Shown one piece after another: positions 22,450 through 40,662 of a DNA stretch of 64,000 nucleotides. The stretch spans positions 23,538 through 87,537 of the forward strand of contig CALJUR010000048.1 in the NCBI GenBank assembly GCA_937975765.1, in the 5' to 3' direction. The position numbers and the translations under genes are program-made. The notes under the pieces are model-generated. The model made no database searches. It was not told the origin of the DNA and worked only from the letters and a program-made list of their open reading frames with translations. Each line of letters opens with the position of its first letter. Position 1 is the first letter of the stretch. Origin of the DNA: an uncultured Myxococcales bacterium (GTDB lineage: Bacteria > Myxococcota_A > UBA9042 > DTJE01).

Positions 22450-22607
22450 GGTCGTCACCTCGATTGGGGATGCCGATCCGTGATTACCAGAACCCGCCCC
22501 CACCTGCAATCCCGACCCTGTGCAGGGATCCCGATCCCGGACTCACCGGATCCCAGGCCAGGACTCCTGGGTGTACCATTCCCGTGTTCCCCAGGCCGGA
22601 GCCGGAC

Positions 22608-24851
22608 ATGCAGTGCCACCGACCCTTCATCGCATCGCGTCCTTCCCTCGACCTCCCGCTGCTCGTCGCCACCCTTGCGGCCGCGTCGTGCAGCGGTCCG
22701 TCGAACGGAACGCTCCCCTGCAGCGCGCTGCTGCCGTGCCCGGGCGACTACCAGTGCGACATCGCCCAGAACACCTGCTGGAAACCGGAATCACCGGACG
22801 GTTCGCAGGTCCCGAGGACTTTCTCGCAGATCGAGGTCGATCCCGCGGCGCCCGAGATCGAGGTGGGGATCGGGAGCATGGAGCCGGGCGAAACGACGAC
22901 CTTCGTCCTGAAGGTTTTCAACACCGGGTCGAAGAGGGACCTTACGATCCAGGAGATCACCCTTCAATACACGCCTCCGGCCGGCGCCCAGGGCGAGGAC
23001 CCGCCGGCCTTCAGGATCCTCATGATTTCGCCCCAGGCCATCCCGATGGTGCTGGCGCCCCTGGGGGAAGGGACCGGGGACGACGTGGAGCAGATGGAGA
23101 TGGCCGTCGTCTTCCAGCGGCCAGCGGACGAACTGCCACGCGAGGCCGTGCTGACGATCCGGAACGATTCGTCCCGGATGACGCACCGGCAGGCCTACAC
23201 GGTCCGATTCAAGACCGCCGCGTGCGCGCCCACCCTGGCCGTGCCTGCGACGCTGGACCTGGGCTTCGCCAGGATGGGCGAGCCTGCCGAGAAGGTTCTG
23301 CAGGTGATGAATACCGGCAACTGCGACCTGGAAATCGATCGGGTGCGATTCGAAGGCACCTCCGGTTTCCAGGTGACGATCGGGGAGGCCGTCCTGGACG
23401 CGACCGACTCGGCGGAGGACTTCCCGCAACTCCCTCCGTTGCGGATCGCGGCGAACGCGTCGGAGGCATGGCCGGTCCGGTACACGGCGGCATCCGGCGA
23501 ACCGGCCGAGGCCCGCCTGACCCTGTTCTCGAACGACGCGTCTGCGCCTGCGGGAACGGTCGTCGAGATGACGGCCAACCGCCAGGTGTCGGCGCTCTCC
23601 GTCGTACCGAACCCGATCGAGTTCGGCGCGAAAATGGTCGGCCAGTCGGCCTCGATCGCGGTCGAGATCCGTTCCGTTGGAAGCAGTGATTCGCAGGTCC
23701 GGGCGATCCGGCTGCAGGAGGGGGCATCCGCCGACTTCTCGCTGGATTTCTCGACCCTGTCCACCGGGCAGGCACCCCAACCGGACGTCTCCTCCGGCTG
23801 GCTGACGATGGCTCCCGGCACCACGGAGTCGTTCGCTGTCCGCTTCGTACCGGACACCCGCAACCCGTTGAACGGCCGGAACCAACCGATCCCGGACACC
23901 GCGACGATCGTCCTGGAGAGCGATTCGCCCTTGTCCCCGCTGGAGATCCAGGTTTCGGGATTCGGCGTCGAGGCCGCCTGCCCGACTCCCGTGATCGTGG
24001 TCGAGGAAGGCGAGGAGGTTGACCTGCCGTCCACGTTGCACCTGCATGGGGAGCAGAGCGACCCGACCCTGGGCGCGATCGCGTCCTACGCCTGGTCCGT
24101 GCATCAACCGGTGGACAACCTCTTCGGCTTCTCCCCGTCGTCGGCGGCCGCCTCCCCGACCCACCAGGTGAACGTCGCCGGCCAGTACACCTACTGCCTG
24201 GACGTGTGCGATGCCGGCGCCTGCTCGTCCGATGCGTCCTGCGGAACGACCGCCTGCCGGGAGGTCTTGGCCATCCACAGCACGATCCTGGCGTGCGAAC
24301 TGACGTGGCGCACGCCGGACGACCCGGACGAATTCGACGAAGGCCTCGATGCGGGCTCGGACCTGGACCTGCACCTCGCCCATCCGGATGCCGGCGGCCC
24401 GGACCTGGACGGCGACGGCAGGCCCGACGGCTGGTTCGATATCCCCCACGACGTGTTCTTCTACAACCCGAACCCCGAGTGGGGCAGCACGAACCCGAAC
24501 ATGAAGGACAACCCGGACCTGGTCCGGGACGACACCGACGGCGCAGGCCCGGAAATCGTGCACCTGGACCTGCCGGAGAGCGGCCGCGTGTACCGGCTGG
24601 GCGTACACTACTGGGACGACCACGGCTTCGACATCGCCTACCCGCGGGTGAAATGCTACGTCTGCGGCGAGTTGGTCTTCGACCAGGATCTGGAAAACCT
24701 CGGGACCAGCCTGCGGATGTGCGACCTGTGGGAGGTCGCGACCTTCGAGTGGCCCTCGGGCAAGGTGACCGCCGTCACGAACGCCACTGGCGACCTGAAG
24801 ATCACGAATCGGTACCAGAATCCTGACTTTCCGGGGATGCCCTGTCCGTAA
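22608..24851 (+). CDS. large secreted protein with repeated choice-of-anchor-D/ASH-like Ig-fold domains
   Basis: Repeated units of the type LDLGFARMGEPAEKVLQVMNTGNCDLEIDRVRFEG. The Cys-rich C-terminal domain ends with YWDDHGF...KCYVCGELVF. The start at ATG 22608 is tentative. Confidence 0.7.
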   Translation: MQCHRPFIASRPSLDLPLLVATLAAASCSGPSNGTLPCSALLPCPGDYQCDIAQNTCWKPESPDGSQVPRTFSQIEVDPAAPEIEVGIGSMEPGETTTFVLKVFNTGSKRDLTIQEITLQYTPPAGAQGEDPPAFRILMISPQAIPMVLAPLGEGTGDDVEQMEMAVVFQRPADELPREAVLTIRNDSSRMTHRQAYTVRFKTAACAPTLAVPATLDLGFARMGEPAEKVLQVMNTGNCDLEIDRVRFEGTSGFQVTIGEAVLDATDSAEDFPQLPPLRIAANASEAWPVRYTAASGEPAEARLTLFSNDASAPAGTVVEMTANRQVSALSVVPNPIEFGAKMVGQSASIAVEIRSVGSSDSQVRAIRLQEGASADFSLDFSTLSTGQAPQPDVSSGWLTMAPGTTESFAVRFVPDTRNPLNGRNQPIPDTATIVLESDSPLSPLEIQVSGFGVEAACPTPVIVVEEGEEVDLPSTLHLHGEQSDPTLGAIASYAWSVHQPVDNLFGFSPSSAAASPTHQVNVAGQYTYCLDVCDAGACSSDASCGTTACREVLAIHSTILACELTWRTPDDPDEFDEGLDAGSDLDLHLAHPDAGGPDLDGDGRPDGWFDIPHDVFFYNPNPEWGSTNPNMKDNPDLVRDDTDGAGPEIVHLDLPESGRVYRLGVHYWDDHGFDIAYPRVKCYVCGELVFDQDLENLGTSLRMCDLWEVATFEWPSGKVTAVTNATGDLKITNRYQNPDFPGMPCP

Positions 24852-24907
24852 GGGGGCCGGTCGCCCCGCGCGATTCGGACGTCGATATACAACCCCGGTT
24901 CCAGCCC

Positions 24908-25654
24908 TCAGAACACCCACGTGAGGCCGGCGTGCGGGGTGAAGACCGCGGCGAGGTCGTAGTCGTCGTCCGCGGGGTGCAGCACCACGTCGGCGCCCAG
25001 TCGCAGGCGCAGGTCGGCCTTCGGACCGTGCACCAGGTCGAACTCCAGCGCCAGGCCCGCGGACGGCAGGCACAGGATGCCGGACCATCCCTTGGGTTCG
25101 GCGGCCAGGAAGGCCGGGCCCAGCGACACGTCCAGCAGGATGTCGGGGGACAGGCGGGACTCGATGCTCCAGTACAAGCCGGACAGCAGCGATGCATGCC
25201 ACTTCGTGTCGTGGCCCGGCCGGGTGCCGACGATGGCGTTGCCCTCGGAGGCGTCCTCGTCATCCCCGTCGTAGGTGTCCACGTTGTCCCAGGGCAGCGC
25301 GACCAGGTGCCAGGTGTTGCGCAGGCCCATGCGGACCTTGCTGCCGACGTACCAGCGTGCACCCCACTCGAAGCCCGCGCCGCCGCCCGCCACGAAGCCG
25401 GGGGTGTTGGCGCCGGCCGCCCCGATGCCCAGCATGGAGACCTGGAACTGGGCGCGGTGCACCCCGGGGGGCAGGCCGTGCCTGGCCTTCTTCTGCGGGG
25501 ATTCGCCGACCGTGGCATCGGGTGCCTTCTCGGGGGCCGGAGCGGGCAGCAGCGCCTCGTCGTCCTGCGGCACGGATTCCTGCGCCCGGGCCGGGAGGGA
25601 CCCCGCCGTCGCAGCGCCCAGCATCGCCACGATCGCCATCCACCGTCGCGTCAT
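24908..25654 (-). CDS. outer-membrane beta-barrel protein
   Basis: Signal peptide MTRRWMAIVAMLGAATAGSLPARAQE, alternating-hydrophobic strands, and a C-terminal HAGLTWVF. GGGGAGGG RBS. Confidence 0.65.
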   Translation of the reverse strand: MTRRWMAIVAMLGAATAGSLPARAQESVPQDDEALLPAPAPEKAPDATVGESPQKKARHGLPPGVHRAQFQVSMLGIGAAGANTPGFVAGGGAGFEWGARWYVGSKVRMGLRNTWHLVALPWDNVDTYDGDDEDASEGNAIVGTRPGHDTKWHASLLSGLYWSIESRLSPDILLDVSLGPAFLAAEPKGWSGILCLPSAGLALEFDLVHGPKADLRLRLGADVVLHPADDDYDLAAVFTPHAGLTWVF

Positions 25655-25843
25655 GCATCCCTCCCCGGTCCGTGCGAGAAGGATCTGAAGCATCGTCTGT
25701 GCCATTCGTATAACTTCCCGACACTTCAATATTTTCGACCGTCGGCCCGCCCGCCGGATCCGGGCTCCTGGATGAGGCTTCGTCCAATCCCGGGGGGAAG
25801 GGATGCCATGCGGCAGGTCGCGGGAAGGAACGCGGCCTCCGGG

Positions 25844-26971
25844 TCAGTCCCAGCGCTCCTTGCCGCCCAGCCAGCCCTGGCGGCGGAACAGCCACAGCAT
25901 GCCGGCGACGGAAGCGAGGCAGATGGCCCAGAAGAACAGGTACCCGTACCTCCAGGACAGCTCGGGCATGTTGAACGGCGAGTCCTCGTCGTGGAAGTTC
26001 ATGCCGTAGACGCCGGCCAGGAACGCCAGGGGCATGAAGACGGTCGCGATGATGGTCAATACCTTCATCACGGCGTTCATCCGGTTGCCGACCGACGACT
26101 GGTAGGCCTCCATGAGGCCCGCGACGATCTCTCGGTAGGTTTCGATCATGTCCAGCACCTGCACGGAGTGGTCCAGGCAGTCGCGCAGGAAGACGCGCGT
26201 CTCCGCGGAGATCAGCGACGTGTCCTCGCGCAGCAGCGATGCCAGCGCGTCCCTCAGGGGGAAGGCGGCCCGGCGCAGCGCCAGCAGGTCGCGCTTGACC
26301 TGGTGGATCCGCGGGATGCAGGCGGTGGTGGGACGCTCGATGATGTCGTCCTCGATACCGTCCAGGCGCTCGCCGAAGGTCTCGAGGATCGGGAAGTACC
26401 CGTCCACGACGGCGTCCAGCAGGGCCCACGCCAGGAAATCCGGGCCCGATCGCCGCAGGCGCCCCTCGCCCTTGCGCAGCCGCGCCCGGACGCCCTCGAG
26501 ACAGTCGCCCGGCCGCTCCTGCTGGAAGGACAGCACGAAGCCCGGGCCAAGGAACAGCGACAACTGCTCGGACGCCAGGACGCCCTCCCCGTGGGACAGC
26601 ATGCGCGACACGACGAACAACTGGTCGCCGTAGTGTTCGACCTTGGGGCGCTGGACCGGGTTCAGCACGTCCTCCTGCGCCAGGCCGTGCAGTTCGAACA
26701 CGTCGGCGATGCGGCGGACGGTGTCGGCGTCGAACACGCCGTCCACGTCGACCCAGGTGACCGGGCGCAGGCCCTTGAACGACGAGAGATCCTCGGGACG
26801 GAGGACGACGCTTTCGTCCAGTTCGTCGGGGCCGTAGGAGAAGACGCGGATCACCGGCGGCGTCGGCGCGGGTGCGCCGGGCGGCGGCGGGGGATGCGGA
26901 AGGCCGGGCTCGGGGGCAGACGGGCGGCGCCTGGGCAGGGCGAACCAGCGGCGATACAGCGGGATGTCCAT
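25844..26971 (-). CDS. corA: CorA magnesium/cobalt transporter
   Basis: GVYGMNF (GMN motif) followed by two C-terminal TM helices. Confidence 0.9.
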   Translation of the reverse strand: MDIPLYRRWFALPRRRPSAPEPGLPHPPPPPGAPAPTPPVIRVFSYGPDELDESVVLRPEDLSSFKGLRPVTWVDVDGVFDADTVRRIADVFELHGLAQEDVLNPVQRPKVEHYGDQLFVVSRMLSHGEGVLASEQLSLFLGPGFVLSFQQERPGDCLEGVRARLRKGEGRLRRSGPDFLAWALLDAVVDGYFPILETFGERLDGIEDDIIERPTTACIPRIHQVKRDLLALRRAAFPLRDALASLLREDTSLISAETRVFLRDCLDHSVQVLDMIETYREIVAGLMEAYQSSVGNRMNAVMKVLTIIATVFMPLAFLAGVYGMNFHDEDSPFNMPELSWRYGYLFFWAICLASVAGMLWLFRRQGWLGGKERWD

Positions 26972-27000
26972 GGCTGGCCTCCGGGGTTCCTGACGGACAT

Positions 27001-27027
27001 TGTAGGGCGGGGGCCCCGTCCCCCGCC
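27001..27027 (-). repeat. REP-like copy (perfect)
   Basis: TGTAGGGCGGGGGCCCCGTCCCCCGCC, between the receiver-kinase stop and the corA start. Confidence 0.9.
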
Positions 27028-27047
27028 AACGTATCTTGGAGGCTCCG

Positions 27048-28172
27048 TCACGCCGCGCCGGGCAGCGTCACGGTGAAGGTGGTGCCGACGTCGGGGGTGC
27101 TGGCGACGGTCGCCTCGCCGCCATAGAGGTGGGCCAGGCGCTGGACGATGGACAGGCCCAGGCCGCTGCCCTCGATCATGCGGGTCTTGTCGTTCTTGAT
27201 GCGGACGAACTCGCCGAACAGGCGGCCGCACTCCTCGGCGGTCATGCCGATGCCCGTGTCGGCGATCGTCAGCACGACGGCGCCGTCCCGCCTGGCGACG
27301 CCCACGTCCACGCGGCCGTGATCGCGGTTGTACTTGACCGCGTTGGACAGCAGGTTGTTCAGGATCAGTTCGATCTCGCCGCGATCCGCCTGCATCGGGG
27401 CCGCCTCGCCGGGGGCCAGGTCGATGGTGATGCCGCGGTCCATCCCCAGTTCGCGGGCGTTCTCGACGCAGCCGGCCGCCACCTCGCGCACGTCCAGGCC
27501 CACGACCGTGCGCGTCTTGCGGCCCGACTCGATGCGGGTCAGGTCCAGCAGGTCGGACACCAACTTGCGCATCCCCTCCAGCCGCACGATGGCACGCTGG
27601 ATGGGGTGGTCGTAGGCCGAAAGTTCCTCGCCCAGCACGCGGTCCTGCATCATGCGCAGGTAGTTCTCGATGGCCGCGGTCGGCGCCTTCATCTCGTGGG
27701 CGACCACGGACAGCAGTTCGAACCGGACGCGCTTGCGTTCCTCGGCCAGCCGCCGCGCCTCGCGCTGCACGACCAGGTGCTTGGCGGCCTTGAACAGGAC
27801 CGACTTCAATTCGTCCGGGGAGAACGGCTTGGCCAGGAAGTCGAAGCCGCCGCGCTTGGTCGCCGCAACCGCCGTCTCCAGCGACGCGTATGCCGTGATG
27901 ACGATCGTCAGGATCTCGACGCCGTCGGCGTGCAACCGGTCCATCAGGTCCAGGCCCGAGATCCCGGGCATCTTGTAGTCCAGCAGCAGGATGTCGGGCG
28001 CGGACGTGCGGATGGCCTCCAGGGCCTCCTCGCCGGAGGCGGCCTGCTCGAACGCCAGCCCGAACTCCCGACCCACGTCGGGCAGCCGGACCGTGAACGT
28101 CCGCAGGGCGCGCTCGACGGCCATGCGGATCCCGGCCTCGTCGTCGACGACCAGCACGCGCAACGTGTCCAT
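27048..28172 (-). CDS. hybrid receiver-histidine kinase (REC-HisKA-HATPase)
   Basis: MDTLRVLVVDDE...LLLDYKMPG...KPF receiver; H-box LLSVVAHEMKAPTAAI; N/G boxes LLSNAVKYN, DTGIGM, GSGLGLSIV. Confidence 0.85.
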   Translation of the reverse strand: MDTLRVLVVDDEAGIRMAVERALRTFTVRLPDVGREFGLAFEQAASGEEALEAIRTSAPDILLLDYKMPGISGLDLMDRLHADGVEILTIVITAYASLETAVAATKRGGFDFLAKPFSPDELKSVLFKAAKHLVVQREARRLAEERKRVRFELLSVVAHEMKAPTAAIENYLRMMQDRVLGEELSAYDHPIQRAIVRLEGMRKLVSDLLDLTRIESGRKTRTVVGLDVREVAAGCVENARELGMDRGITIDLAPGEAAPMQADRGEIELILNNLLSNAVKYNRDHGRVDVGVARRDGAVVLTIADTGIGMTAEECGRLFGEFVRIKNDKTRMIEGSGLGLSIVQRLAHLYGGEATVASTPDVGTTFTVTLPGAA

Positions 28173-28189
28173 GCCGCGCCTCCCGGAAT

Positions 28190-28294
28190 GAGGGCCAGCC
28201 TCCAATTTCCGCCAGGGTGCTTCCAAGCATCCAAACGCCGATACATGGCGGTTATCGCAAGGTTTTCAAGCCTTGAAAATGGAGGCTGTCCCTG
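28190..28294. repeat. diverged GGGACAG-arm pair (CCTCC variant) with a 65-bp core
   Basis: GAGGGCCAGCCTCCAATTTC (28190-28209) versus the reverse complement of 28275-28294, CAGGGACAGCCTCCATTTTC (17/20). Lies between the receiver gene and the receiver-kinase gene. Confidence 0.55.
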
Positions 28295-28299
28295 TTTTT

Positions 28300-28692
28300 C
28301 TACCTCGCCAGCAGGCGATCCACCTCGGACTTCAACTGCTCGTACCGGACGGGCTTGGGCAGCACGGCGTCGGCCGGCACCCAGCGGCGCTCCTCGGTGG
28401 TGGCCGCGTCGAACTCCAGGCCGGTCTCGCCCGTCACGCCCGTCACCAGCAGCACCGGCGTCCCGGGCCGCGCCCGCCGCACGCGGTGCCCCAGCACGAA
28501 GCCCGAGTCGGGGTTCTCCATCATCAGGTCCAGGATCGCCAGGTCGAACGCCGTCCCGGCCGCCAGCAGCGCCTCGCCGCGGGCCTGGCCCTCGGCCGTG
28601 ACCACCTCGAAACCGTCCGCCTTCAGCCGGATGGCGGTCTGCTCCAGGAAGTCGGGGTCGTCGTCCACCAGCAGGATCGTCTTCGCAGGCAT
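28300..28692 (-). CDS. stand-alone response-regulator receiver protein
   Basis: MPAKTILLVDDDPDF...LAILDLMM...LPKPV. 130 aa with no output domain. GGAGG RBS. Confidence 0.85.
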   Translation of the reverse strand: MPAKTILLVDDDPDFLEQTAIRLKADGFEVVTAEGQARGEALLAAGTAFDLAILDLMMENPDSGFVLGHRVRRARPGTPVLLVTGVTGETGLEFDAATTEERRWVPADAVLPKPVRYEQLKSEVDRLLAR

Positions 28693-28711
28693 CGCAGAGC
28701 CTCCGCATCCT

Positions 28712-28771
28712 GGCGGGGGACAGGGCCCCCGCCCTACACATCCTGGCGGGGGACGGGGCCCCCGCCCTACA
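28712..28771 (+). repeat. two tandem REP-like copies (33-nt period)
   Basis: CATCCTGGCGGGGGAC(A/G)GGGCCCCCGCCCTACA twice (cores at 28712-28738 and 28745-28771), between the sensor kinase and receiver genes. Confidence 0.9.
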
Positions 28772-28852
28772 CACCGCCAGACCGACGCTTCGCGCGTCCT
28801 GGCGAGCCTCGCGTGCTGCCGACCCTGGCGGCAGACGCTCGCAATTGGCAAC

Positions 28853-28879
28853 GGCGGAGGACAGGGCCCCCGCCCCACG
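28853..28879 (+). repeat. REP-like copy (degenerate)
   Basis: GGCGGAGGACAGGGCCCCCGCCCCACG, immediately 3' of the sensor-kinase stop at 28881. Confidence 0.7.
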
Positions 28880-28880
28880 G

Positions 28881-30881
28881 TCACTCGGCGCGTCCGCGCC
28901 TGGGCATCCGGATCGTGAACGTCGTCCCGGTCGGGCCCGCCGCCGGGTCCGCGTTCGACGTCGCCAGGATCTCGCCGCGGTGCATCTTCACGATGCCGTA
29001 GGACACCGCCAGGCCCAGGCCCGTCCCGCGCCCCATCGGCTTGGTCGTGAAGAACGGCGTGAAGATCTTCCCCATGTGCTCGGGACGGATGCCCGTGCCC
29101 GTGTCCGCCACCTCGAACACCACGTGGTCGTCGTCGCCGCCCGTCCGCGCCGTCAGGGTGCCGCCGTTCGGCATCGCCTCGATGGCGTTCACCATCACGT
29201 TCGTCAGCACCTGCAGCATCTGGTCGCGGTCCAGTTCCGCCACCGGCTCGACCGACGCGTGCTCGACCCGCACCTTCACGCCGTCGGTCCGCCGGATGCC
29301 CCGCAGCGCCGCGTCCACCAGGTCCCGCACGTTCACCGGCTGCAGGTTCACCTGGTTCTGCCGCGCGAAGTTCAACAGGCCCGACACGATCCGCTTGCAC
29401 CGCTCGGCCTGCTCGGCGATCAGCTTCAGGTCCGCCTGCAACTGCGAGTCCTTGGCCGCCTCGTCCGCCAGCAGGTGCGCGTACATCAGCACCACGCCCA
29501 GCGGGTTGTTCACCTCGTGCGCGATGCCCGCCGCCAACTGCCCCATGCTGGCCAGTTTCTCGGCGTGCACCAGCGCGTCCTGCGTGCTGGCCAGCTGCCG
29601 GTGCGACTCGTGCAGTTCGCCCACCGTGGTCCGCAGCCGGTCGATCGTCCAGGGCAGGCACATCTCGCTCTCGGCCAGCCCCTGGTGGATCGCGATCGCG
29701 TGCTCGATGCAGGTCGCGTAGCCGCAGGCCCCGCAGTTCAGTTCATCCTCGGGCCGGTCCTTGCCCATCCGCGCCAGGATGGCCTGGATCTCCTCGCGCG
29801 TCGGCCCGGGCAGCCGCCGGTCGTCCGGCGCGAACCCGCGCGACAGGTCCAGTTCGTCGAACCGGCGCATCGCGGCGCGCCACGCCTTGTCGTCCAGCAG
29901 TTCCGCGCGGTCCCGCACGTACCGCGCCACCATCGCCTGCCGCGTGAACCGGGGCGCCCTCGTCATCATGCCGGGCCCCATCACGCATCCCTGGCAGGCC
30001 AGCACCTCCAGCAGCGCCGACGGGATCGCCCCCGCCTCGAACTCCTTCACCGCCTCAACGAACCGCTGGTGCCCGTCCGCCGTCACGCCCTCGGCGTCCA
30101 TCAGGTCGCTGTCCACCTCGGCCGCCTTCAGCAGCCCGCCGCTGATCGAGAACAGCCCGCCGACCCCGCCGTGCGGCGGGTCGAAGTCCGAATCCGCCAC
30201 GTCCTCCGGCCGCACGCCGCGCCGCCGGAACAGGTCGCGAAGTTCCGCGAAGGTCAGCGCCGCGGCGACCTCGCGGGGGAACTTCTCGGTCTCGGCCTTC
30301 TTCGCGATGCACGGTCCCGCGAACACGGACGGCACGCTCTCCCCGTGCAGCCGCCTCGCCACCCGCGCGATCGCGACCATCGGCGACACGATCGGCGCCA
30401 GCGACCCGACCAGGTGCGGGTGGTAGCGCTCGACGTACTCGACCAGGGCCGGGCACGTCGTCGCCACGTACTTGCGCCCCGCGGCCCCGTCCAGCAGCCG
30501 CCGGTAGCGGTCCGACACCAGGTCCGCGCCGAACGCCACCTCGTGCACGTAGGTGAAGCCGACCGCCCGCAGCATCCCCGCCAGCCGCCGCCACGGGATG
30601 TCGCCGAATTCCGCCGGGAAGGAGGGGGCCACCAGGATCGAGACCGGGCCGCCGCCGTCCAGCAACGCCTCGACCTCGGGCAGGCTGTCGCGGACCTGCT
30701 TGGCCTTCTGGCTGCATACCTGCACGCAGTTCCCGCAGCCGATGCAGCGCTCGGGCATGACCTCGGCCTGGCCGCCGGTGATCCGGATCGCCTTCGCCGG
30801 GCACTCGCGGACGCACCCGTAACAGACCCGGCACTTCTCCCGGATCGTCGTGACCAGCGGTTTCGACAGCGAGCCCGTCAC
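28881..30881 (-). CDS. sensory [FeFe]-hydrogenase-like (HydS-type) Fe-S domain fused to a histidine kinase
   Basis: GTG start after GGGAGGGG. Two ferredoxin motifs (CRVCYGCVRECP, CIGCGNCVQVC). H-cluster-like motifs VATTCPAL, AGPCIAKKAE and EVLACQGCVMGPG. CGACGYATC Fe-S motif. H-box AAGIAHEVNNPL and an HATPase domain (DTGTGI, GTGLGLAVS). Confidence 0.85.
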   Translation of the reverse strand: MTGSLSKPLVTTIREKCRVCYGCVRECPAKAIRITGGQAEVMPERCIGCGNCVQVCSQKAKQVRDSLPEVEALLDGGGPVSILVAPSFPAEFGDIPWRRLAGMLRAVGFTYVHEVAFGADLVSDRYRRLLDGAAGRKYVATTCPALVEYVERYHPHLVGSLAPIVSPMVAIARVARRLHGESVPSVFAGPCIAKKAETEKFPREVAAALTFAELRDLFRRRGVRPEDVADSDFDPPHGGVGGLFSISGGLLKAAEVDSDLMDAEGVTADGHQRFVEAVKEFEAGAIPSALLEVLACQGCVMGPGMMTRAPRFTRQAMVARYVRDRAELLDDKAWRAAMRRFDELDLSRGFAPDDRRLPGPTREEIQAILARMGKDRPEDELNCGACGYATCIEHAIAIHQGLAESEMCLPWTIDRLRTTVGELHESHRQLASTQDALVHAEKLASMGQLAAGIAHEVNNPLGVVLMYAHLLADEAAKDSQLQADLKLIAEQAERCKRIVSGLLNFARQNQVNLQPVNVRDLVDAALRGIRRTDGVKVRVEHASVEPVAELDRDQMLQVLTNVMVNAIEAMPNGGTLTARTGGDDDHVVFEVADTGTGIRPEHMGKIFTPFFTTKPMGRGTGLGLAVSYGIVKMHRGEILATSNADPAAGPTGTTFTIRMPRRGRAE

Positions 30882-30936
30882 GTCGCCCCTCCCGGCCGGA
30901 TGCCGGACCCAGTATCGATGACCGGGCCGATCCGGG

Positions 30937-32655
30937 TCAAACCTCCGCCTGCCGCGGCGCGTACGCGGTGTGCAGCAGGTGGTGCGCCTTCTCGCTGCCC
31001 GGCGCGCCCAGGTTCTCGTCGTACAGCCTCTTCACCAGTTCGTTCGCGTGCGACGTCCGCAGGTCCGAGTCCCGGTCGATGTCGTACAGCGCCTTCATGC
31101 GCGCCCGCACCGCGTCCAGGTCCGCGCCGATCGGCTGGCCGCCGCCGTTCACGCAGCCGCCCGGGCACGCCATCACCTCGATGACCGCCAGGTCGCGCCG
31201 GCCGGCCCGCACCTCCTGCATCAGCCGCCGCGCGTTCGCCAGTCCCGACACGGCCGCCACGCCCAGTTCGGCGCCGCCGATCTTCACCCTCGCCTCCTTG
31301 ACGCCCTGCAGACCGCGGATCTCCTTCACCTTGGCCGCGTCCAGTTCCTTCCCCGTCAGCATGTGGTGCGCGGTCCGCAGCGCCGCCTCCAGCACGCCGC
31401 CCGACGCGCCGAACAGCTTGCCGGCCGACGACCTTTCCCCGAACGGGGTGTCCGGCAGCTCGGCGACCATGTCCCGCAGGTCCAGGCCCCGCATCCGGAT
31501 GATGCGCGCCAGTTCGCGGGTGGTCAGGACCGCGTCCACGTCCGGCTGGCCCTCGTTCCGCCGCTCGGGCGAGGACGCCTCGAACTTCTTCGCGGTGCAC
31601 GGCATCACCGACACCACGAACACGTCCCCGGGCGCCACGCCCAGCCGGTTCGCGAAGTGCGACTTCAGCACCGCGCCCAGCATCTGCTGGGGGCTCTTGC
31701 ACGAGGACAGGTGCGGCAGCAGGTCCGGGAACTCCTGCTCGGCGAAGTCCACCCACGCCGGGCAGCACGAGGTCATCAGCGGCAGCACGCCGCCGTTCTT
31801 CACGCGATCGACCAGTTCGTTCGCCTCCTCCATGATGGTCAGGTCGGCCGCGAACGAGGTGTCGAACACGTAGTCGAAGCCCAGCCGCCGCAGCGCCGCG
31901 TTCAGCACGCCCGCGACGTCCACGCCGGGCCGCGCCCCGAACATCTCGCCGATGGTCACGGACACGGCCGGCGCGTGCTGCACCACCACGACCTTCTTCG
32001 GGTTCCGGATGGCGTCGAACACGTCCTTGAAGTGGCTGCGTTCCGTCAGCGCGCCGGTCGGGCACGCCAGGATGCACTGGCCGCAGTCCACGCACGACGA
32101 CACGTTCAGGCCGGCGTTGAAGGCCGGCGCCACCCGCGTCTTCGAGCCTCGCCCGACGAAGTCGATCGCCGCGACGGACTGCACCTCCTCGCACACGCGC
32201 ACGCACTTGCCGCACAGGATGCACTTCTCGGGGTCGCGCACGATGGACGGCGAGGACATGTCCAGCCGCATCGGGTTGCGCGCGCCCTGGTAACGGCGCT
32301 GGCGCACCCCCAGTTCGGCGGCCAGTTCCTGCAACTGGCAGTTCCCGTTGCGGCTGCAGTACAGGCAGTCGTCGGGGTGGTTCGCCAGCAGCAGTTCGAC
32401 GATGGTCTTGCGAGCCCGGACCGCCCGCTGGGAGTGGGTCTGGACCTTCATGCCCTCGCGCACCGGGAAGGCGCACGACGGCACCAGGCCGCGCATCCCC
32501 TCGACCTCGACCACGCACATCCGGCATGCGCCGGTGGGCAGCAGGCCCTCCATCGCGCACAGGGTGGGGACCCGGATGCCGGCGCGCCGCAGCGCGGTCA
32601 GCAGCATCTCGCCGGGCTTCGCCTCGATCGCCTTGTCGTTGACGGTGATGGTCAT
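30937..32655 (-). CDS. hydA: [FeFe] hydrogenase catalytic subunit (HydA/HndD type)
   Basis: 2Fe-2S and 4Fe-4S N-terminal modules. H-cluster motifs MTSCCPAW, VMPCTAKKFE and EVMACPGGCVNGGGQP. Start at ATG 32655 (GGAGGAG upstream); an alternative ATGA-overlap start lies at 32670. Confidence 0.9.
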   Translation of the reverse strand: MTITVNDKAIEAKPGEMLLTALRRAGIRVPTLCAMEGLLPTGACRMCVVEVEGMRGLVPSCAFPVREGMKVQTHSQRAVRARKTIVELLLANHPDDCLYCSRNGNCQLQELAAELGVRQRRYQGARNPMRLDMSSPSIVRDPEKCILCGKCVRVCEEVQSVAAIDFVGRGSKTRVAPAFNAGLNVSSCVDCGQCILACPTGALTERSHFKDVFDAIRNPKKVVVVQHAPAVSVTIGEMFGARPGVDVAGVLNAALRRLGFDYVFDTSFAADLTIMEEANELVDRVKNGGVLPLMTSCCPAWVDFAEQEFPDLLPHLSSCKSPQQMLGAVLKSHFANRLGVAPGDVFVVSVMPCTAKKFEASSPERRNEGQPDVDAVLTTRELARIIRMRGLDLRDMVAELPDTPFGERSSAGKLFGASGGVLEAALRTAHHMLTGKELDAAKVKEIRGLQGVKEARVKIGGAELGVAAVSGLANARRLMQEVRAGRRDLAVIEVMACPGGCVNGGGQPIGADLDAVRARMKALYDIDRDSDLRTSHANELVKRLYDENLGAPGSEKAHHLLHTAYAPRQAEV

Positions 32656-32669
32656 CGATTTCTCCTCCA

Positions 32670-34643
32670 TCAGGCCACCTTCACCGCGTGGTGCCGGCAC
32701 TCGACCCGGCACTGCCCGCAGGCGATGCACTTGTCCGGCACGATGTAGTGCGGCGACCGCGGGGCGCCCAGGATCGCCCCCGACGGGCAGGACCGCGCGC
32801 ACAGGCCGCAGCCGTTGCACATCTCGGGGTCGATCGAGAAGGTCAGCAGTTCGGTGCACGCCCCGGCGCGGCACTTCCGCTCGAAGACGTGCTCCTCGTA
32901 CTCCTCGCGGAACCACCGCAGCGTGGACAGCACCGGGTTCGGCGCCGACTGGCCCAGCCCGCACAGCGACGTGTCCTGGATGACGCCCGCCAGCCGCTCC
33001 AGGTACATCACGCCCTGGAAGCGGGCCAGCGCGTCGTTCTCCTTCTCGTTGCGCCGGCTGCGCGTGATCCGCTGCAGGATTTCCAGCATGCGCCGCGTGC
33101 CCTCGCGGCACGGGATGCACTTGCCGCACGACTCGCGCTGGATGAAGTCCATGAAGAACTTGGCCAGGTCCACCATGCAGGTGGTCTCGTCCATGACGAC
33201 CAGGCCGCCGGACCCCATCATCGCGCCGACCTTCTTCAGCGACTCGTAGTCGACCAGTGTGTCCATCTGCGAGTCGGGGATGCACCCGCCGGACGGCCCG
33301 CCGATCTGCACCGCCTTGAACGCCTTCCCGTCCGGGATGCCGCCGCCCACGTCGAACACGATCTGCCGCAGCGTCGTGCCCATCGGGACCTCGACCAGGC
33401 CGGTGCGGACGACCTTGCCGGACAGAGCGAACACCTTGGTGCCCTTGCTGCCCTCGGTGCCGATCGCCGCGAACCCTTCCGCCCCCAGGTCCAGCAGGCC
33501 GGGCAGGTTCGCCAGCGTCTCGACGTTGTTGATGACGGTCGGCTTGCCCCACAGGCCCGACACGGCCGGGTAAGGAGGCCTTGGCCGGGGCATGCCGCGC
33601 CGGCCCTCGATGCTGTTCAGCAGCGCGGTCTCCTCGCCGCAGACGAACGCGCCGGCGCCCTGCTTGACGGCAATCTCCAGGTCCACGCCGCTGCCCAGGA
33701 TGTCCTTCCCCAGGAAGCCCCAGGACTTCGCCTGCTCGATCGCCTCGTGCAGCCGCGCCACGGCCAGCGGGTACTCGGCCCGGATGTAGACGTACGCCTT
33801 GGACGCGCCGATGGCATAGGCCGCGATCGCCATGCCTTCCAGCAGCCGGTGCGGGTCGCCTTCCACCACGGCGCGGTCCATGAACGCGCCCGGGTCGCCC
33901 TCGTCGGCGTTGCACACCAGGTACTTCCGGTCGCCGGGGGCCTGCAGCGCCGCCTTCCACTTGGTGCCGGTGGGGAAGCCGCCGCCGCCGCGGCCACGCA
34001 GGCCGGACTTCTCGACCAGGTCGCAGACCTCGGGAGGGGTCAGGCTGCGGACCGTGCGCGCGTACGCCTCGTAGCCGCCGCGCGCCAGGTACTCGTCGAT
34101 GCGGGACGGGTCGATGACGCCGCAGTTCTTCAGGACCCACCGCTTCTGCGGGGCGAAGAACGGATGCTGTTCCTGGTACTGGATGCCGTCCCAGGGGGTC
34201 CGGCCCTCGCCGTGGAACTGGTACAGCACGTGGTCCGCAGCGACCTTCCCGTCCAGCGTGCCACCGACCACCACCTCGACGTCCTTCGCGGCGACCTTGC
34301 CGAACGACAGCCGCGTCCGGCCCGGCAGCTGGACGTCCACCATCGGCTCGAAGGCGCACAGGCCGATGCAGCCGACCTCCACCACGTCGCCTTCCACGCC
34401 GCGGGCGGCCAGCAGTTCCCGGATCGAGGCCAGCGTCTTGCCCGCCCCCGCGCCCAGCCCGCAGGTGCCGGTCCCCACGAAGATCGTCGGCCGATCCACG
34501 TCCTCGCGGCGCAGCCGGCGCATCGCCTCCTCCAGTTTCCGCAGCCGGGCTTCCTCGGTCCTGCGGCCGCTGCCCGTCAGCCGGGCCTGCAGTTCGGCCC
34601 GCGGCAGTTCGGCATCCCGGTACGAATCTCGCTTGGCGTTCAT
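32670..34643 (-). CDS. hydB: NuoF-like NADH/FMN-binding hydrogenase subunit (HydB/HndC type)
   Basis: GLRGRGGGGFPTGTKW, ESCGKCIPCREG, and C-terminal 2x[4Fe-4S] motifs (CNGCGLCARSCP, CIACGQCRVEC). ATGA overlap with hydC. Confidence 0.9.
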   Translation of the reverse strand: MNAKRDSYRDAELPRAELQARLTGSGRRTEEARLRKLEEAMRRLRREDVDRPTIFVGTGTCGLGAGAGKTLASIRELLAARGVEGDVVEVGCIGLCAFEPMVDVQLPGRTRLSFGKVAAKDVEVVVGGTLDGKVAADHVLYQFHGEGRTPWDGIQYQEQHPFFAPQKRWVLKNCGVIDPSRIDEYLARGGYEAYARTVRSLTPPEVCDLVEKSGLRGRGGGGFPTGTKWKAALQAPGDRKYLVCNADEGDPGAFMDRAVVEGDPHRLLEGMAIAAYAIGASKAYVYIRAEYPLAVARLHEAIEQAKSWGFLGKDILGSGVDLEIAVKQGAGAFVCGEETALLNSIEGRRGMPRPRPPYPAVSGLWGKPTVINNVETLANLPGLLDLGAEGFAAIGTEGSKGTKVFALSGKVVRTGLVEVPMGTTLRQIVFDVGGGIPDGKAFKAVQIGGPSGGCIPDSQMDTLVDYESLKKVGAMMGSGGLVVMDETTCMVDLAKFFMDFIQRESCGKCIPCREGTRRMLEILQRITRSRRNEKENDALARFQGVMYLERLAGVIQDTSLCGLGQSAPNPVLSTLRWFREEYEEHVFERKCRAGACTELLTFSIDPEMCNGCGLCARSCPSGAILGAPRSPHYIVPDKCIACGQCRVECRHHAVKVA

Positions 34644-35110
34644 GCGGCGGACCTCCGCTTGCAGGAATTCAGGATGGCGTTGACCTTGTCCGGGGTGACG
34701 CCGGCGTGGAACTCGCCGTTGATCGCGATGACGGGGGCCAGCCCGCAGGCGCCGATGCAGGCGACGACCTCCAGGCTGAACATCCCGTCCCGGGTCGTCT
34801 CGCCGGGTTCGATCTTCAGCGCGCGGCGGATCGAGTCCAGCACGGCGGCCGACCCGCGCACGTGGCAGGCGGTCCCGCGGCACACCTGGACGTGGTAGGT
34901 GCCGCGCCCCTGGAACCGGAACTGGTTGTAGAACGTCGCCACCCCGAACACCTTGCTGGGCGGCAGCGACAGGTGGTCGGCAACCCGCACGATGGCCTCG
35001 CGCGACAGGTAGCCTTCCGCCTCCTGGACCTCCTGCAGGATCGGGATCAGCGCGTCCCGTCCGGCACCCGGGTGACGCTCCAGGACCTCGTCGATTCGGC
35101 TTTCCACCAT
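34640..35110 (-). CDS. hydC: NuoE-like 2Fe-2S hydrogenase subunit (HydC/HndA type)
   Basis: CRGTACHVRG...CIGACGLAP thioredoxin-like 2Fe-2S motif. ATG 35110 is preferred over GTG 35149 because the GTG lies inside a Rex operator. Confidence 0.85.
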   Translation of the reverse strand: MVESRIDEVLERHPGAGRDALIPILQEVQEAEGYLSREAIVRVADHLSLPPSKVFGVATFYNQFRFQGRGTYHVQVCRGTACHVRGSAAVLDSIRRALKIEPGETTRDGMFSLEVVACIGACGLAPVIAINGEFHAGVTPDKVNAILNSCKRRSAA

Positions 35111-35134
35111 GGCCCCCTTCGCTTCACTTCCGTC

Positions 35135-35150
35135 TGTGAATTTCTTCACA
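35135..35150. promoter_or_regulatory. Rex operator 1 (hydCBA leader)
   Basis: TGTGAATTTCTTCACA matches the Rex consensus TGTGAA-N4-TTCACA, 25 nt upstream of the hydC ATG. A possible -35 TTGACA (35189-35184, minus strand) lies upstream. Confidence 0.75.
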
Positions 35151-35237
35151 GGCCATGCGGAGTGTGCATGCGCAGCCGTCTTCTGTCAAGCAGGAAGTTT
35201 TTCCATGACGAATTTTCCGACTTGACACCTCGCCATC

Positions 35238-35253
35238 TGTGAATGTATTTACA
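35238..35253. promoter_or_regulatory. Rex operator 2 (rex promoter)
   Basis: TGTGAATGTATTTACA (one mismatch) overlaps a candidate -10 TATTTA (35246-35251), 18 nt after TTGACA (35222-35227). Confidence 0.65.
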
Positions 35254-35293
35254 GCATGGTTGGACCCGGGGAATCCCGGGACCGGAGGACAGG

Positions 35294-35947
35294 ATGGATC
35301 CCCGCCCCGAAGAGGACGGTTCCACGACCCGCGTACCGACGCAGACGATCCAGCGCCTGACGGTGTACCGCAAGGTGCTGGCCGAACTGCACGCGGAGGG
35401 CGTGGAGAACGTCTTCTCGCACCGGCTGGCCGAACTGGCGGGCGTGCACCCGGCCCAGCTTCGCCGCGACCTGTCGATCTTCGGGTCGTTCGGGTCCATC
35501 AGCCGCGGCTACGAGGTGCACGACCTGTCCCTGACCATCGGCCACCTGCTGGGCACCGACCGGCCGCAGACGGTGGCACTGGTCGGGCTGGGCAACCTGG
35601 GCCGCACCCTGCTGACCTACCGTGGATTCGAGGAGCGCGGCTTCCGGATCGGCGTGGTGTTCGACAACGACCCCGAGAAGGTGGGCCGCGTCTACGCCGG
35701 GCGCAGGTGCCACGCGGTGGAGGAGATCGAGGCGGTACTGCCCGCGTACGGCGCGCGCATCGCCGTGCTGGCCTGCGGCCCCGTCGGGGTCGAGGACGTC
35801 GTGGACCGCCTGGCGGGTGCCGGAGTACGGTCCATCCTGAACTTCGTCCCCCGCCGCGTGCCGGCACCGGACGGGGTCCACGTCGAGGACGTCGACATCT
35901 CGGCCAAGCTGGAGATGCTGTCGTTCCTCAGCCGGGAGGGCGAATGA
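35294..35947 (+). CDS. rex: redox-sensing transcriptional repressor Rex
   Basis: IQRLTVYRKVLAEL winged helix, GLGNLGRTLL Rossmann motif, typical length. GGAGGA RBS. Three TGTGAA-N4-TTCACA sites lie nearby. Confidence 0.9.
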   Translation: MDPRPEEDGSTTRVPTQTIQRLTVYRKVLAELHAEGVENVFSHRLAELAGVHPAQLRRDLSIFGSFGSISRGYEVHDLSLTIGHLLGTDRPQTVALVGLGNLGRTLLTYRGFEERGFRIGVVFDNDPEKVGRVYAGRRCHAVEEIEAVLPAYGARIAVLACGPVGVEDVVDRLAGAGVRSILNFVPRRVPAPDGVHVEDVDISAKLEMLSFLSREGE

Positions 35948-35979
35948 CCTTCCTGGCGGACTTTTTTGTTGTCCGTGAC

Positions 35980-35995
35980 TGTGAAGTTTTTCACA
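35980..35995. promoter_or_regulatory. Rex operator 3 (upstream of the receiver gene at 36070)
   Basis: TGTGAAGTTTTTCACA is a perfect half-site pair, in the rex-receiver intergenic region. Confidence 0.75.
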
Positions 35996-36069
35996 GACAA
36001 GGAAGCGTCGGCCGCGGGCGCGGACGACGGGGATCGGCGACACGGGCGATGCCCGACGAGGAGGCGAAG

Positions 36070-36495
36070 ATGGCCGAGGCGAAGCGGATCCTGGTGATCG
36101 ACGACGACGAGGACCTGGTGCAGTCCACGACCGCGCTGCTGCGGGCTCGCGGCTTCGACGCCGACGGGGCGCGCAACGGGACCGAGGGCCTGGCGAAAAT
36201 CCGGGCCCGGCGGCCCGACCTGCTGGTGCTGGACATCATGATGGACCACGACACCGAGGGCTTCCAACTGGCGTACAAACTGAAGGCGGACGCCGAGTTG
36301 AAGGGCCTGCCGGTGATCATCGTGTCGTCCTTCCAGGAGCACCTGGCCCAGAAGATGGACAGTTTCCAGTTCGTTCTGGGCAACGACTGGCCGGCCGAGG
36401 CGCTGCTGGAGAAGCCGGTGAAGCCCGACCTGCTGGCGGAAACCATCGGCAAGGTGCTGGCGGACGTCGAGGCGCGCAAGGCCGCCGTGGCGTGA
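36070..36495 (+). CDS. stand-alone response-regulator receiver protein
   Basis: MAEAKRILVIDDDEDL...LLVLDIMM...EKPV. GAGGAGG upstream of ATG 36070 (alternative ATG at 36049). A Rex operator lies 75 nt upstream. Confidence 0.8.
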   Translation: MAEAKRILVIDDDEDLVQSTTALLRARGFDADGARNGTEGLAKIRARRPDLLVLDIMMDHDTEGFQLAYKLKADAELKGLPVIIVSSFQEHLAQKMDSFQFVLGNDWPAEALLEKPVKPDLLAETIGKVLADVEARKAAVA

Positions 36496-36506
36496 TGTAT
36501 CTGCAG

Positions 36507-36666
36507 CCCGCCCGGGCACGCAGGCGGAGTCCACGGGTTTCCGCAGGAAACTCCGGACGCAGCCGGAGTCGCCTCGGGCGCACTGGAACCCGCCCGAGCA
36601 CGCAGGCGGAGTCCACGGGTTTCCGCAGGAAACTCCGGACGCAGCCGAAGTCGCCTCGGGCGCACT
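36507..36666 (+). repeat. 2 x 78-nt direct repeat (period 82 nt, 76/78 identical)
   Basis: CCCGCCCG(G/A)GCACGCAGGCGGAGTCCACGGGTTTCCGCAGGAAACTCCGGACGCAGCCG(G/A)AGTCGCCTCGGGCGCACT at 36507-36584 and 36589-36666. Each unit contains a GTTTCC-GCA-GGAAAC hairpin. Confidence 0.9.
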
Positions 36667-36669
36667 CAA

Positions 36670-36696
36670 TGCAGGGCGGGGGCCCCGTCCCCCGCC
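36670..36696 (-). repeat. REP-like copy (TGCAGGG variant)
   Basis: TGCAGGGCGGGGGCCCCGTCCCCCGCC, 2 nt from the crotonase stop codon. Confidence 0.9.
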
Positions 36697-36698
36697 TG

Positions 36699-37481
36699 CT
36701 ACCGCCCGTGGAACTCCGGCGCGCGGCGCGCCAGGAAGGCCTGCATCCCCTCCTTCTGGTCCCCGCTGCTGAACAGGTCCCCGAAGGCGTCGGCCTCGGC
36801 GACCAGGGCGGCGTCCAGCGTCCGATCGGTCGCGGCGCGTACCAGGTGCTTCGCCACCTTCACGGCCAGCGGCCCGCGCGACGCGATGGCCCGCGCCAGT
36901 TCCATCGCCGCCGGCACCACGTCCGCCGCGGGCAGCACCTTCTGGACCAGGCCGACGCGGTGGGCCTCGACCGCCGGGTAGGTATTGCCGGACAGGATCC
37001 ACTCCAGCGCCGCGTTGCGCCCGATCACCCGTGCCAGGCGCGCCGTGCCACCGAACCCCGGGATGACACCCAGATTCACCTCGGGCTGGCCGAACACGGC
37101 ATTCTCGGATGCGTAGACGACGTCGCACGCCAGCGCCAGTTCGCACCCTCCGCCCAGTGCGAAGCCGTTGACCGCGGCGATCACCGGGATGGGCAGATCC
37201 TCGAGGGCCCGGAAGACGCCCTGGCCGTACCGGGAGAAGGCGTCGGCGTCGGCCGGGGACATGCCCGCCATCTGGGCGATGTCGGCGCCGGCCACGAACG
37301 CCTTGGGACCCGCGCCGGTGATCACCAGGACGCGGCAGCCCGGGCTCTCGGCCACCCGGACCGTCGCCTCCTCCAGTTCGGCCAGGACCTGCCGGTTCAG
37401 CGCGTTCAGGACCTGCGGCCGGTCCAGCGTCAGCACCGCGACGGGACCGTCGAATTCCAGGCGCAGGGCGGGTTCCGACAT
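36699..37481 (-). CDS. enoyl-CoA hydratase/isomerase (crotonase) family protein
   Basis: VLVITGAGPKAFVAGADI...AAVNGFALGGGCELALACD...GQPEVNLGVIPGFGGT are crotonase oxyanion-hole motifs. Confidence 0.85.
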   Translation of the reverse strand: MSEPALRLEFDGPVAVLTLDRPQVLNALNRQVLAELEEATVRVAESPGCRVLVITGAGPKAFVAGADIAQMAGMSPADADAFSRYGQGVFRALEDLPIPVIAAVNGFALGGGCELALACDVVYASENAVFGQPEVNLGVIPGFGGTARLARVIGRNAALEWILSGNTYPAVEAHRVGLVQKVLPAADVVPAAMELARAIASRGPLAVKVAKHLVRAATDRTLDAALVAEADAFGDLFSSGDQKEGMQAFLARRAPEFHGR

Positions 37482-37546
37482 GACGACATCCTCCGATGGC
37501 TGGAGTCGAAAGCGTATCGCGACGCGGGCTTCCAGGAAAGGGGCGA

Positions 37547-40655: not shown

Positions 40656-40662
40656 CAAAAAT

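Follow-up and report, generated by a model that had tools for sequence, protein, structure and literature searches.

The locus considered here raises the question of what a soluble histidine kinase with a hydrogenase-like domain senses, and to which partner it passes the signal. The gene, here called hydS/HK, is found in a 64,000-nt stretch of contig CALJUR010000048.1 from an uncultured Myxococcales bacterium (the whole of this stretch is referred to as the window). It lies directly behind hydCBA, the genes of a trimeric hydrogenase, and is followed by genes for a stand-alone receiver (RR1) and a receiver-kinase hybrid (RRHK); a further stand-alone receiver (RR3) is encoded behind the divergent gene rex. 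Our reading, to which a probability of about 60% is assigned, is that HydS/HK is a cytoplasmic H2-sensor kinase whose expression is linked to Rex and whose signal would be relayed via RRHK to RR1.

The translation was analyzed with Pfam. Members of the Fer4 family were placed at residues 14-60, Fe_hyd_lg_C (PF02906) at 80-303 (136 bits, against a cut-off of 22.1), the FeS family PF04060 at 381-410, HisKA at 446-509 (54 bits), and HATPase_c at 551-661 (82 bits). A chance origin of these domains is ruled out by their E-values (1e-8 to 1e-39) and by the thousands of homologues in which they are conserved. A preliminary description had listed the same modules (two ferredoxin motifs, an H-cluster-type domain, a CGACGYATC motif, and HisKA/HATPase), and it was borne out. 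Conservation was counted column by column in an alignment of 120 orthologues (58-90% identity). The ferredoxin-like domain contains two CxxCxxCxxxC motifs (C16/19/22/26 and C45/48/51/55) whose eight Cys residues are invariant or nearly so, and CGACGYATC opens an exact Cx2Cx4Cx16C motif (C382, C385, C390, C407) that is invariant in 120/120 sequences.

Between these motifs, BLASTP aligned HydS/HK with the neighboring HydA across the whole H-domain at 29% identity, with three signatures in register: VATTCPAL (138-145), AGPCIAKKAE (187-196), and EVLACQGCVMGPG (291-303) in HydS/HK vs. MTSCCPAW, VMPCTAKKFE, and EVMACPGGCVNGGGQP in HydA. The HydS/HK strings had been reported as altered relative to the catalytic subunit, the gene for which ends 55 nt before hydS/HK starts, and all strings and gene coordinates were confirmed. 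The ligand motifs read ATTCP (L1; C142), GPCIAKKAE (L2; C190, K193, E196), and LACQGC (L3; C295, C298). The four equivalents of the H-cluster ligands (C142, C190, C295, C298) are invariant (120/120), and so are P143, G188, P189, K193, E196, L293, G301, A84-P85-S86, and S165-P166-M167, i.e. the residues that surround the di-iron subcluster in CpI. An AlphaFold2 (AF2) model of the protein had a mean pLDDT of 86, with values over 90 for the greater part of the H-domain. The top Foldseek matches of this confident model were the true [FeFe] hydrogenases CbA5H, DdH, TmHydA, and CpI (E-values of 1e-18 to 1e-22), together with the kinase core of ZraS. No sensory HydS in the PDB was matched, by sequence or by fold.

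The residues of the catalytic proton path are a different matter. Position 141, which corresponds to the proton-relay Cys of CpI (C299), is Thr in 69, Ser in 37, Asn in 8, Pro in 3, and Ala in 2 of the 120 orthologues and is never Cys; HydS/HK of the window has T141. In the alignment with HydA, the equivalents of the proton-path residues E279 and E282 are occupied by Arg. The position of M353 is always Gly (G188), and that of M497 is always Leu. Loss of the relay Cys, Gly at M353, and the HydS-type C-terminal cluster have been described as hallmarks of putative sensory enzymes (PMC8163306, PMC10055695), and the Cx2Cx4Cx16C motif is also known from TmHydS and TamHydS (PMC8163306). The loss of the first Cys, which the preliminary description had called the known hallmark of sensory hydrogenases, is thus real here; the hallmark itself is common but not universal, as 17% of sensory enzymes retain this Cys (PMC10055695). 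At the level of sequence, the identification of the H-domain as a sensory (non-catalytic-type) [FeFe]-hydrogenase module that has lost the catalytic proton relay is supported.

One feature is unusual. In all 120 orthologues L3 reads CxGC (Cx2C), one residue short of the canonical Cx3C (ExMxCxxGCxxG) of group A enzymes. Residue 294, immediately before the first L3 Cys, is itself Cys in 77/120 orthologues (LCCxGC), a variant that could restore the Cx3C spacing. It is Ala in HydS/HK of the window, where Cx2C alone is available.

For the kinase half, the AF2 model featured a helix at 408-431 directly after C407, a short low-confidence break, the dimerization and histidine-phosphotransfer (DHp) helices at 437-473 (with H454) and 479-506, and the catalytic and ATP-binding (CA) domain at 513-661. 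No PAS domain was detected by Pfam in HydS/HK; about 45 helical residues separate C407 from H454. This helix order implies an almost direct connection of the C-terminal cluster domain with the helix that accepts the phosphoryl group. The kinase boxes are invariant in the orthologues (H454, N560/N564, D592-G594-G596, F609, G618-G622), as is an HExxN motif (H454-E-V-N-N). In HisKA kinases this phosphatase motif suggests a bifunctional kinase/phosphatase. The closest PDB match of the core is ZraS (9jfj, 3.5e-34), and the AtoS and ZraS models of NCBIfam scored best. AtoS and ZraS belong to the NtrB family of kinases, which normally serve NtrC-type regulators. By domains and boxes, HydS/HK is classed as an NtrB/AtoS/ZraS-like HisKA sensor kinase, and its autophosphorylation is predicted.

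Pfam likewise confirmed the 130-aa receiver and the receiver-kinase hybrid that had been described on the same strand behind hydS/HK. A third receiver-only gene, reported at 36070, is real but divergent, being located on the plus strand behind a Rex box of its own. RR1 has the phospho-acceptor residues D10/D11, D55, T84, and K112. RR1 and RR3, which are 32% identical, are paralogues that share the canonical phospho-acceptor residues and an unusual conserved beta4-alpha4 segment, which in RR1 orthologues takes the atypical and highly conserved form VT.ETGLEFDAAT.EER.W. No output domain was found by Pfam in either protein, and neither the three receiver genes nor the genes just downstream code for a DNA-binding or enzymatic output. 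The statement that no output is visible therefore stands for these genes, but it overlooked the DNA-binding regulator next door, Rex, with its three operators. Single-domain receivers work through protein contact. In RRHK, the best receiver-only PDB match of the receiver was NtrC (1dc7, 1e-16), followed by NtrC1, LuxO, and DctD, which fits the NtrB-like kinase of HydS/HK. Its kinase core is PhoR/PnpS-like (NCBIfam). The H-box, HE(L/M)KAP in the family and HELKA in the window protein, is devoid of the T/N of the phosphatase motif, and RRHK may be a kinase only. The mean column conservation of HydS/HK, RR1, and RRHK is similar (0.62-0.67), which is consistent with a co-evolving module.

Homologues of HydS/HK number more than 7,700 in the protein database. 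The top 120 share its architecture (650-695 aa, 58-90% identity) and come from Myxococcota, Planctomycetota, Verrucomicrobia, Latescibacteria, and Hydrogenedentes. Among contigs representing one genome per species, relatives are encoded on at least 575 stretches; the 80 best of these are all from metagenome-assembled genomes (MAGs) of well over ten phyla, and the closest relatives (72% and 69% identity) are in MAGs of Deltaproteobacteria/Myxococcota, which makes this lineage the probable source of the window. Six-frame open reading frames (ORFs) of the best 80 loci were searched with the window proteins, and the resulting counts are lower bounds. The order (rex)-hydC-hydB-hydA-hydS/HK-REC-REC/HK recurred and is strongly conserved. 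RRHK is directly downstream of hydS/HK in 68/69 evaluable loci, and an RR1 orthologue is adjacent in 56/70 (between HydS/HK and RRHK in 51, between HydA and HydS/HK in 12), and the full triad of hydS/HK, RR1, and RRHK was found in 50/65. HydA is immediately upstream of hydS/HK in at least 52/69 loci, HydCBA is present in 38/52, and Rex accompanies HydCBA in 31/38. On a 2-Mb contig (locus L081) with independent gene calls and precomputed Pfam annotation, the series Rex, HydC, HydB, HydA, HydS/HK, REC (131 aa), and REC-HisKA-HATPase (376 aa) was recovered, with unrelated genes beyond. Genes of the hydG/E radical-SAM type and hydF follow the module in some 20-27 of 65 loci, and a gene for an aspartase-like lyase does so in 12. 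These maturase and lyase genes lie 0.4-4 kb downstream of RRHK (e.g. L025 9289-11394, L045 15886-18321, L051 8759-10393). In the window, corA occupies the position at which related loci often carry maturase genes.

Some related loci contain a second hydrogenase cluster with a PilS-like membrane kinase (TM-GAF-HisKA-HATPase, where TM is a transmembrane segment) beside it: L020 3575-6037, L059 5729-8089, L060 3059-5488, L031 3837-5939, and L076 12911-14968. In the first three of these, the kinase is preceded by an RR3-like stand-alone receiver. This suggests that multi-kinase networks exist around H2 metabolism.

The identity of Rex was established using Pfam and the NCBIfam model NF003995 (199.7 bits, cut-off 126). 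The window was scanned for TGTGAA-N4-TTCACA with up to 2 mismatches. Three operators and no others were found, all within 860 bp; 0.42 were expected, and 0/100 shuffles reached three. A terminator-like hairpin (35931-35957) ends rex. Operator and promoter scans revealed no Rex box or convincing promoter before hydS, RR1, or RRHK. In the related loci (1.3 Mb, at most 1 mismatch), 28 of 33 Rex operators were just upstream of rex or hydC, and locus L002 has the rex-RR3 arrangement with a Rex box before RR3, as in the window. Judging from these operator positions, the hydrogenase operon, hydS behind it, and RR3 probably belong to an NADH/NAD+-responsive Rex regulon.

The sensor module was also found on other outputs. 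An HMMER scan with residues 1-420 of HydS/HK yielded 925 clusters at an E-value of 1e-30 or better, and the best 150 representatives were sorted by L3 spacing. Cx2C was found in 73, of which 38 have an NtrB-like kinase; Cx3C was found in 65, of which 59 are without a kinase and mostly 555-595 aa in length (the PAS/TmHydS type). Among 25 long Cx2C or no-kinase representatives, Pfam detected a sigma54-interaction AAA+ domain in 16 (12 with HTH_8) and GGDEF in 1; examples of the sigma54- or GGDEF-fused Cx2C module are P0157, P0159, P0164, and P0178. Such fusions would be one-component H2- or redox-responsive regulators. Enhancer-binding proteins with Fer4, Fe_hyd_lg_C, and FeS domains have already been catalogued in Clostridiales (PMC6615313). 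The occurrence of one input module on several signaling outputs points to a regulatory instead of a metabolic role and, for the kinase fusion, indicates an NtrB/NtrC context. Locus L070, from Elusimicrobia, encodes a second, PAS-type HydS (457-2229, plus strand; TACP, GPCVAKK, and FCKDGC, the last being Cx3C) upstream of hydC. Two different sensory hydrogenases thus surround one operon there, the kinase-fused one being downstream of hydA.

Among known proteins, TmHydS of Thermotoga maritima and other putative sensory enzymes of group C (M2f) share the two N-terminal [4Fe-4S] motifs, the compact H-domain with all four Cys ligands, the replaced proton-relay Cys, Gly at M353, a non-Met residue at M497, the Cx2Cx4Cx16C cluster, and a gene position beside a trimeric group A hydrogenase. 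The PAS domain that follows the C-terminal cluster in M2f enzymes, however, is missing from HydS/HK, in which a helix connects the cluster domain with a full HisKA-HATPase kinase; the L3 spacing is Cx2C instead of Cx3C, and the C299 position holds Thr in place of Ala. TamHydS (group D, M2e) shares the three-domain Fe-S layout, the absence of PAS, and a histidine-kinase-like gene nearby (PMC8163306). There, a separate gene, neighbored by one for an AraC regulator, encodes the kinase-like ATPase, and Ser instead of Gly is found at M353. The PAS-type TmHydS and the group D TamHydS are the only characterized sensory forms, and according to a 2026 paper the interaction partners are still unknown (PMC13104023). 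Kinase-linked forms are listed in HydDB as having a "putative, undetermined role" (PMC5037454). The preliminary remark that they are catalogued but that their signaling route has not been worked out thus agrees with both sources.

The same fusion, beside trimeric hydCBA and with Rex nearby, was reported for kinase-fused group C proteins of Elusimicrobia (bioRxiv 10.1101/765248) and Hydrogenedentota (PMC11406978), phyla to which several of the related loci belong. The Hydrogenedentota paper describes C1 proteins with HATPase_C and a C3 "BfuT" with a histidine-kinase domain downstream of bfuA, under the labels "C1 with HATPase_C", "BfuT with His_kinase_dom", and Caldithrix abyssi type; kinase-bearing forms have been labeled both C1 and C3 in published surveys (PMC11406978). 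Both papers mention the fusion in passing; neither describes the pair of conserved receivers, the Cx2C signature, or the operators for Rex. In Ruminococcus albus, HydS with a PP2C phosphatase/Ser-Thr kinase (HydDB C3) also ties a sensory H-domain to phosphorylation beside catalytic hydrogenase genes, but that system uses Ser/Thr chemistry and PAS, whereas a His-Asp relay is encoded here. The sigma54 enhancer-binding proteins of Clostridiales (PMC6615313) have the same module, including Cx2C in the representatives studied here; they are one-component proteins with a direct DNA-binding output, while the module of HydS/HK would feed a multi-step phosphorelay. The [NiFe] systems HoxBC-HoxJ-HoxA and HupUV-HupT-HupR follow the same logic, in that a low-activity hydrogenase serves as the H2 sensor that drives a kinase for the control of hydrogenase expression. 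Their metal centers and proteins are unrelated, sensor and kinase are separate polypeptides, and their response regulator binds DNA as a sigma54 activator, an output that the receivers described here do not have. Neither [NiFe] subunits nor a REC-AAA+-HTH regulator were found in the cluster, and the likeness to HoxJ/HoxA is functional only.

In the mechanism that we propose, HydS/HK would be made together with the hydrogenase once the NADH/NAD+ ratio is high and Rex is off the DNA. Binding or oxidation of H2 at the H-cluster would alter the conformation and/or the redox state of the clusters, and the kinase/phosphatase balance of the HydS/HK dimer would shift. The phosphoryl group would then be passed to the NtrC-like receiver of RRHK, and the PhoR-like kinase of RRHK would phosphorylate RR1 and possibly RR3. 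The cluster itself does not encode the final target, for which an unlinked regulator, Rex, and the HydABC enzyme would be candidates. A narrower version, in which the triad is a non-transcriptional relay whose phosphorylated stand-alone receiver binds Rex or HydABC, with the Rex-controlled RR3 as a feedback link, is decidedly unlikely. If it were true, electron-confurcating H2 production would have a single control point at which H2 partial pressure and the NADH/NAD+ ratio are integrated.

Several points weigh against an H2-sensing phosphorelay. We infer its wiring from adjacency and family resemblance, and RR1 is absent from roughly one fifth of the loci. The co-transcription of hydS with hydCBA is something we infer from spacing, and hairpins resembling repetitive extragenic palindromes (REP) are situated between hydS and RR1. 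All characterized [FeFe] hydrogenases have Cx3C in L3; with the Cx2C found here, the incorporation of a di-iron subcluster is putative. No hydEFG maturase gene was found in the window. In Hydrogenedentota, no P1-P3 motifs were found in HATPase-carrying C1 proteins, and H2 sensing was doubted (PMC11406978); if these proteins are of the HydS/HK clade, the invariant Cx2C may explain why the motifs were missed. H2 does not reduce TamHydS's C-terminal cluster (PMC13104023), which makes a simple redox switch at this cluster unlikely. Finally, the literature yielded no paper that pairs an H-cluster protein with kinase assays and no biochemistry for kinase-fused members.

Part of this evidence would also suit a general redox, iron-sulfur, or O2 sensor, in which the H-domain holds a [4Fe-4S] cluster alone, as in Nar1, and the kinase reads the reduction state of four cubanes, reflecting e.g. 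the ferredoxin pool or electron leak from HydABC. Cx2C is a normal ferredoxin spacing, and the missing P1-P3 signatures of kinase-bearing C1 proteins (PMC11406978) and the lack of maturase genes in the window fit such a protein; moreover, every NCBIfam hydrogenase model scored HydS/HK below its cut-off. Yet the residues that are needed for the di-iron subcluster alone (the equivalents of K358, E361, and A230-P231-S232, plus the SPM and F..SGG segments) are invariant in the 120 orthologues, and the fold matches true hydrogenases. In related loci, hydG/E and hydF are often located behind the module, and a functional H-cluster is bound by PAS-type relatives whose pockets are altered in a similar way (PMC10055695, PMC8163306). 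A redox sensor of this kind, and with it a Nar1-like identity, is considered unlikely.

The order of the relay could differ from that proposed: HydS/HK could phosphorylate RR1 directly, with RR1 as the true output and RRHK as a second input under its own regulation or a phosphate sink in a branched network. RR1 is immediately beside hydS/HK (downstream in 51 loci, upstream in 12), its alpha1 helix is very conserved over the N-terminal half (DDDPDFLEQ), although as an indicator of wiring this is a weak trend, and extra kinases (the PilS-like TM-GAF-HK proteins with RR3-like receivers) are found near related clusters. RRHK, however, is the more constant partner (68/69 vs. 56/70 loci), its NtrC-like receiver matches the NtrB-like kinase, and RR1 often overlaps RRHK as if the two were translationally coupled, all of which renders direct signaling to RR1 possible but doubtful. 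The protein could also be an accessory subunit ("BfuT") of the bifurcating hydrogenase, with a metabolic or electron-transfer role and a secondary kinase activity. Its gene is constantly beside hydCBA, the protein has been named a T subunit (PMC11406978), and a metabolic role has been raised for a C1 enzyme beside bifurcation subunits (PMC8542988). This is highly improbable in the face of an invariant phospho-His and kinase catalytic boxes, dedicated receivers behind hydS/HK, 17/69 loci without an adjacent hydA, the same sensor module on sigma54 activators and GGDEF, and a missing proton relay.

The features of the locus are collected in Table 1. The window is about 70% G+C, and raw ORF lists were noisy; the minus-strand gene series was defined using codon-position G+C, Pfam, and ribosome-binding sites, which are GGAGG-like at all starts.

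Table 1. Coordinates of the signaling locus, its sensor domains, and its regulatory sites in the window.
Feature	Position	Strand	Description
corA	25844-26971	-	Next gene after RRHK
RRHK	27048-28172	-	374 aa, REC+HisKA+HATPase; Pfam, PDB, NCBIfam
RR1	28300-28692	-	130-aa stand-alone receiver; Pfam
REP-like hairpins (three)	28712-28875	-	Take up the 188-nt hydS/HK-RR1 gap
hydS/HK	28881-30881	-	GTG start; 666-aa soluble sensor kinase; translation, Pfam, AF2
Helical linker, DHp, and CA	28899-29660	-	AF2 secondary structure, PDB, NCBIfam
C-terminal [4Fe-4S] motif	29661-29738	-	PF04060; Cx2Cx4Cx16C
Sensory-type H-domain (aa 80-303)	29973-30644	-	PF02906, HydA alignment, column counts
N-terminal ferredoxin-like domain (aa 9-62)	30696-30857	-	Pfam Fer4_10/Fer4/Fer4_7
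hydA	30937-32670	-	577 aa; catalytic subunit of trimeric (bifurcating-type) [FeFe] hydrogenase
hydB	32670-34643	-	NuoF-like flavoprotein subunit; start ATG overlaps hydC stop (ATGA)
hydC	34640-35110	-	NuoE-like [2Fe-2S] subunit
Rex operator TGTGAATTTCTTCACA	35135-35150		Perfect; 25-40 nt upstream of hydC ATG
Rex operator TGTGAATGTATTTACA	35238-35253		1 mismatch; ~41-56 nt upstream of rex ATG
rex	35294-35947	+	Redox-sensing (NADH/NAD+) transcriptional repressor; divergent from hydC
Rex operator TGTGAAGTTTTTCACA	35980-35995		Perfect; 75 nt upstream of RR3, just past the hairpin
RR3	36070-36495	+	141-aa stand-alone receiver, downstream of rex

The REP-like sequence, a genome-wide repeat, is a GC-rich palindrome, GGGCGGGGGCCC(C/T)GTCCCCCGCC, of which the window contains 14 copies (0.06 expected). 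They are located at 8644-8782, 16503, 19352, 27005, 28712-28875, 36674, and 58500-58710, apparently always between genes; one copy separates RRHK from corA. No Rfam match was found in 24000-38000, and no tRNA was found by ARAGORN in the whole window. A sigma70 promoter and terminator scan of 26800-36600 did not rise above shuffles except at the hairpin after rex, and a sigma54 promoter scan (TGGCAC-N5-TTGC) gave 5 matches, with 4.1 expected and none near the signaling module. In the region 37547-43024, genes for proteins with DUF1858+DUF2249 and DUF438+hemerythrin+PAS_10 are clustered with those for a GAF-sigma54 activator and a hemerythrin that stands alone; the region resembles an O2/NO-type sensing unit and indicates that the organism uses sigma54. 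Its activator (40691-42286), the sole sigma54 activator of the window, was considered as an output target of the relay and rejected, as it has a GAF input instead of a receiver and is grouped with genes for hemerythrin, PAS, and DUF438 proteins. HYDIN/VesB-like Ig and PKD-like domains are found in two large proteins (22464-24851 and 45692-48019, both plus strand), which are probably secreted or surface-located and are unrelated to the hydS finding.

The hydS/HK locus is a real but ordinary member of a large, already catalogued family. By itself it adds little beyond another example. The new details were brought out by comparison and may be useful to specialists; they are the conserved triad, the Cx2C signature, the pairing of an NtrB-like kinase with an NtrC-like receiver, the Rex operators, and the probable control of RR3 by Rex. 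The identification of interaction partners for sensory hydrogenases was called critical in the 2026 study (PMC13104023). The kinase-fused form offers a direct and easily assayed output (autophosphorylation with and without H2), two conserved candidate partners next door, and a comparison with the PAS- and sigma54-fused relatives that share its module. Members of the family abound, across many phyla, in uncultured anaerobes that produce or consume H2, and the logic of the family is therefore relevant to the way in which fermentative H2 production is kept in check in sediments, groundwater, and digesters.

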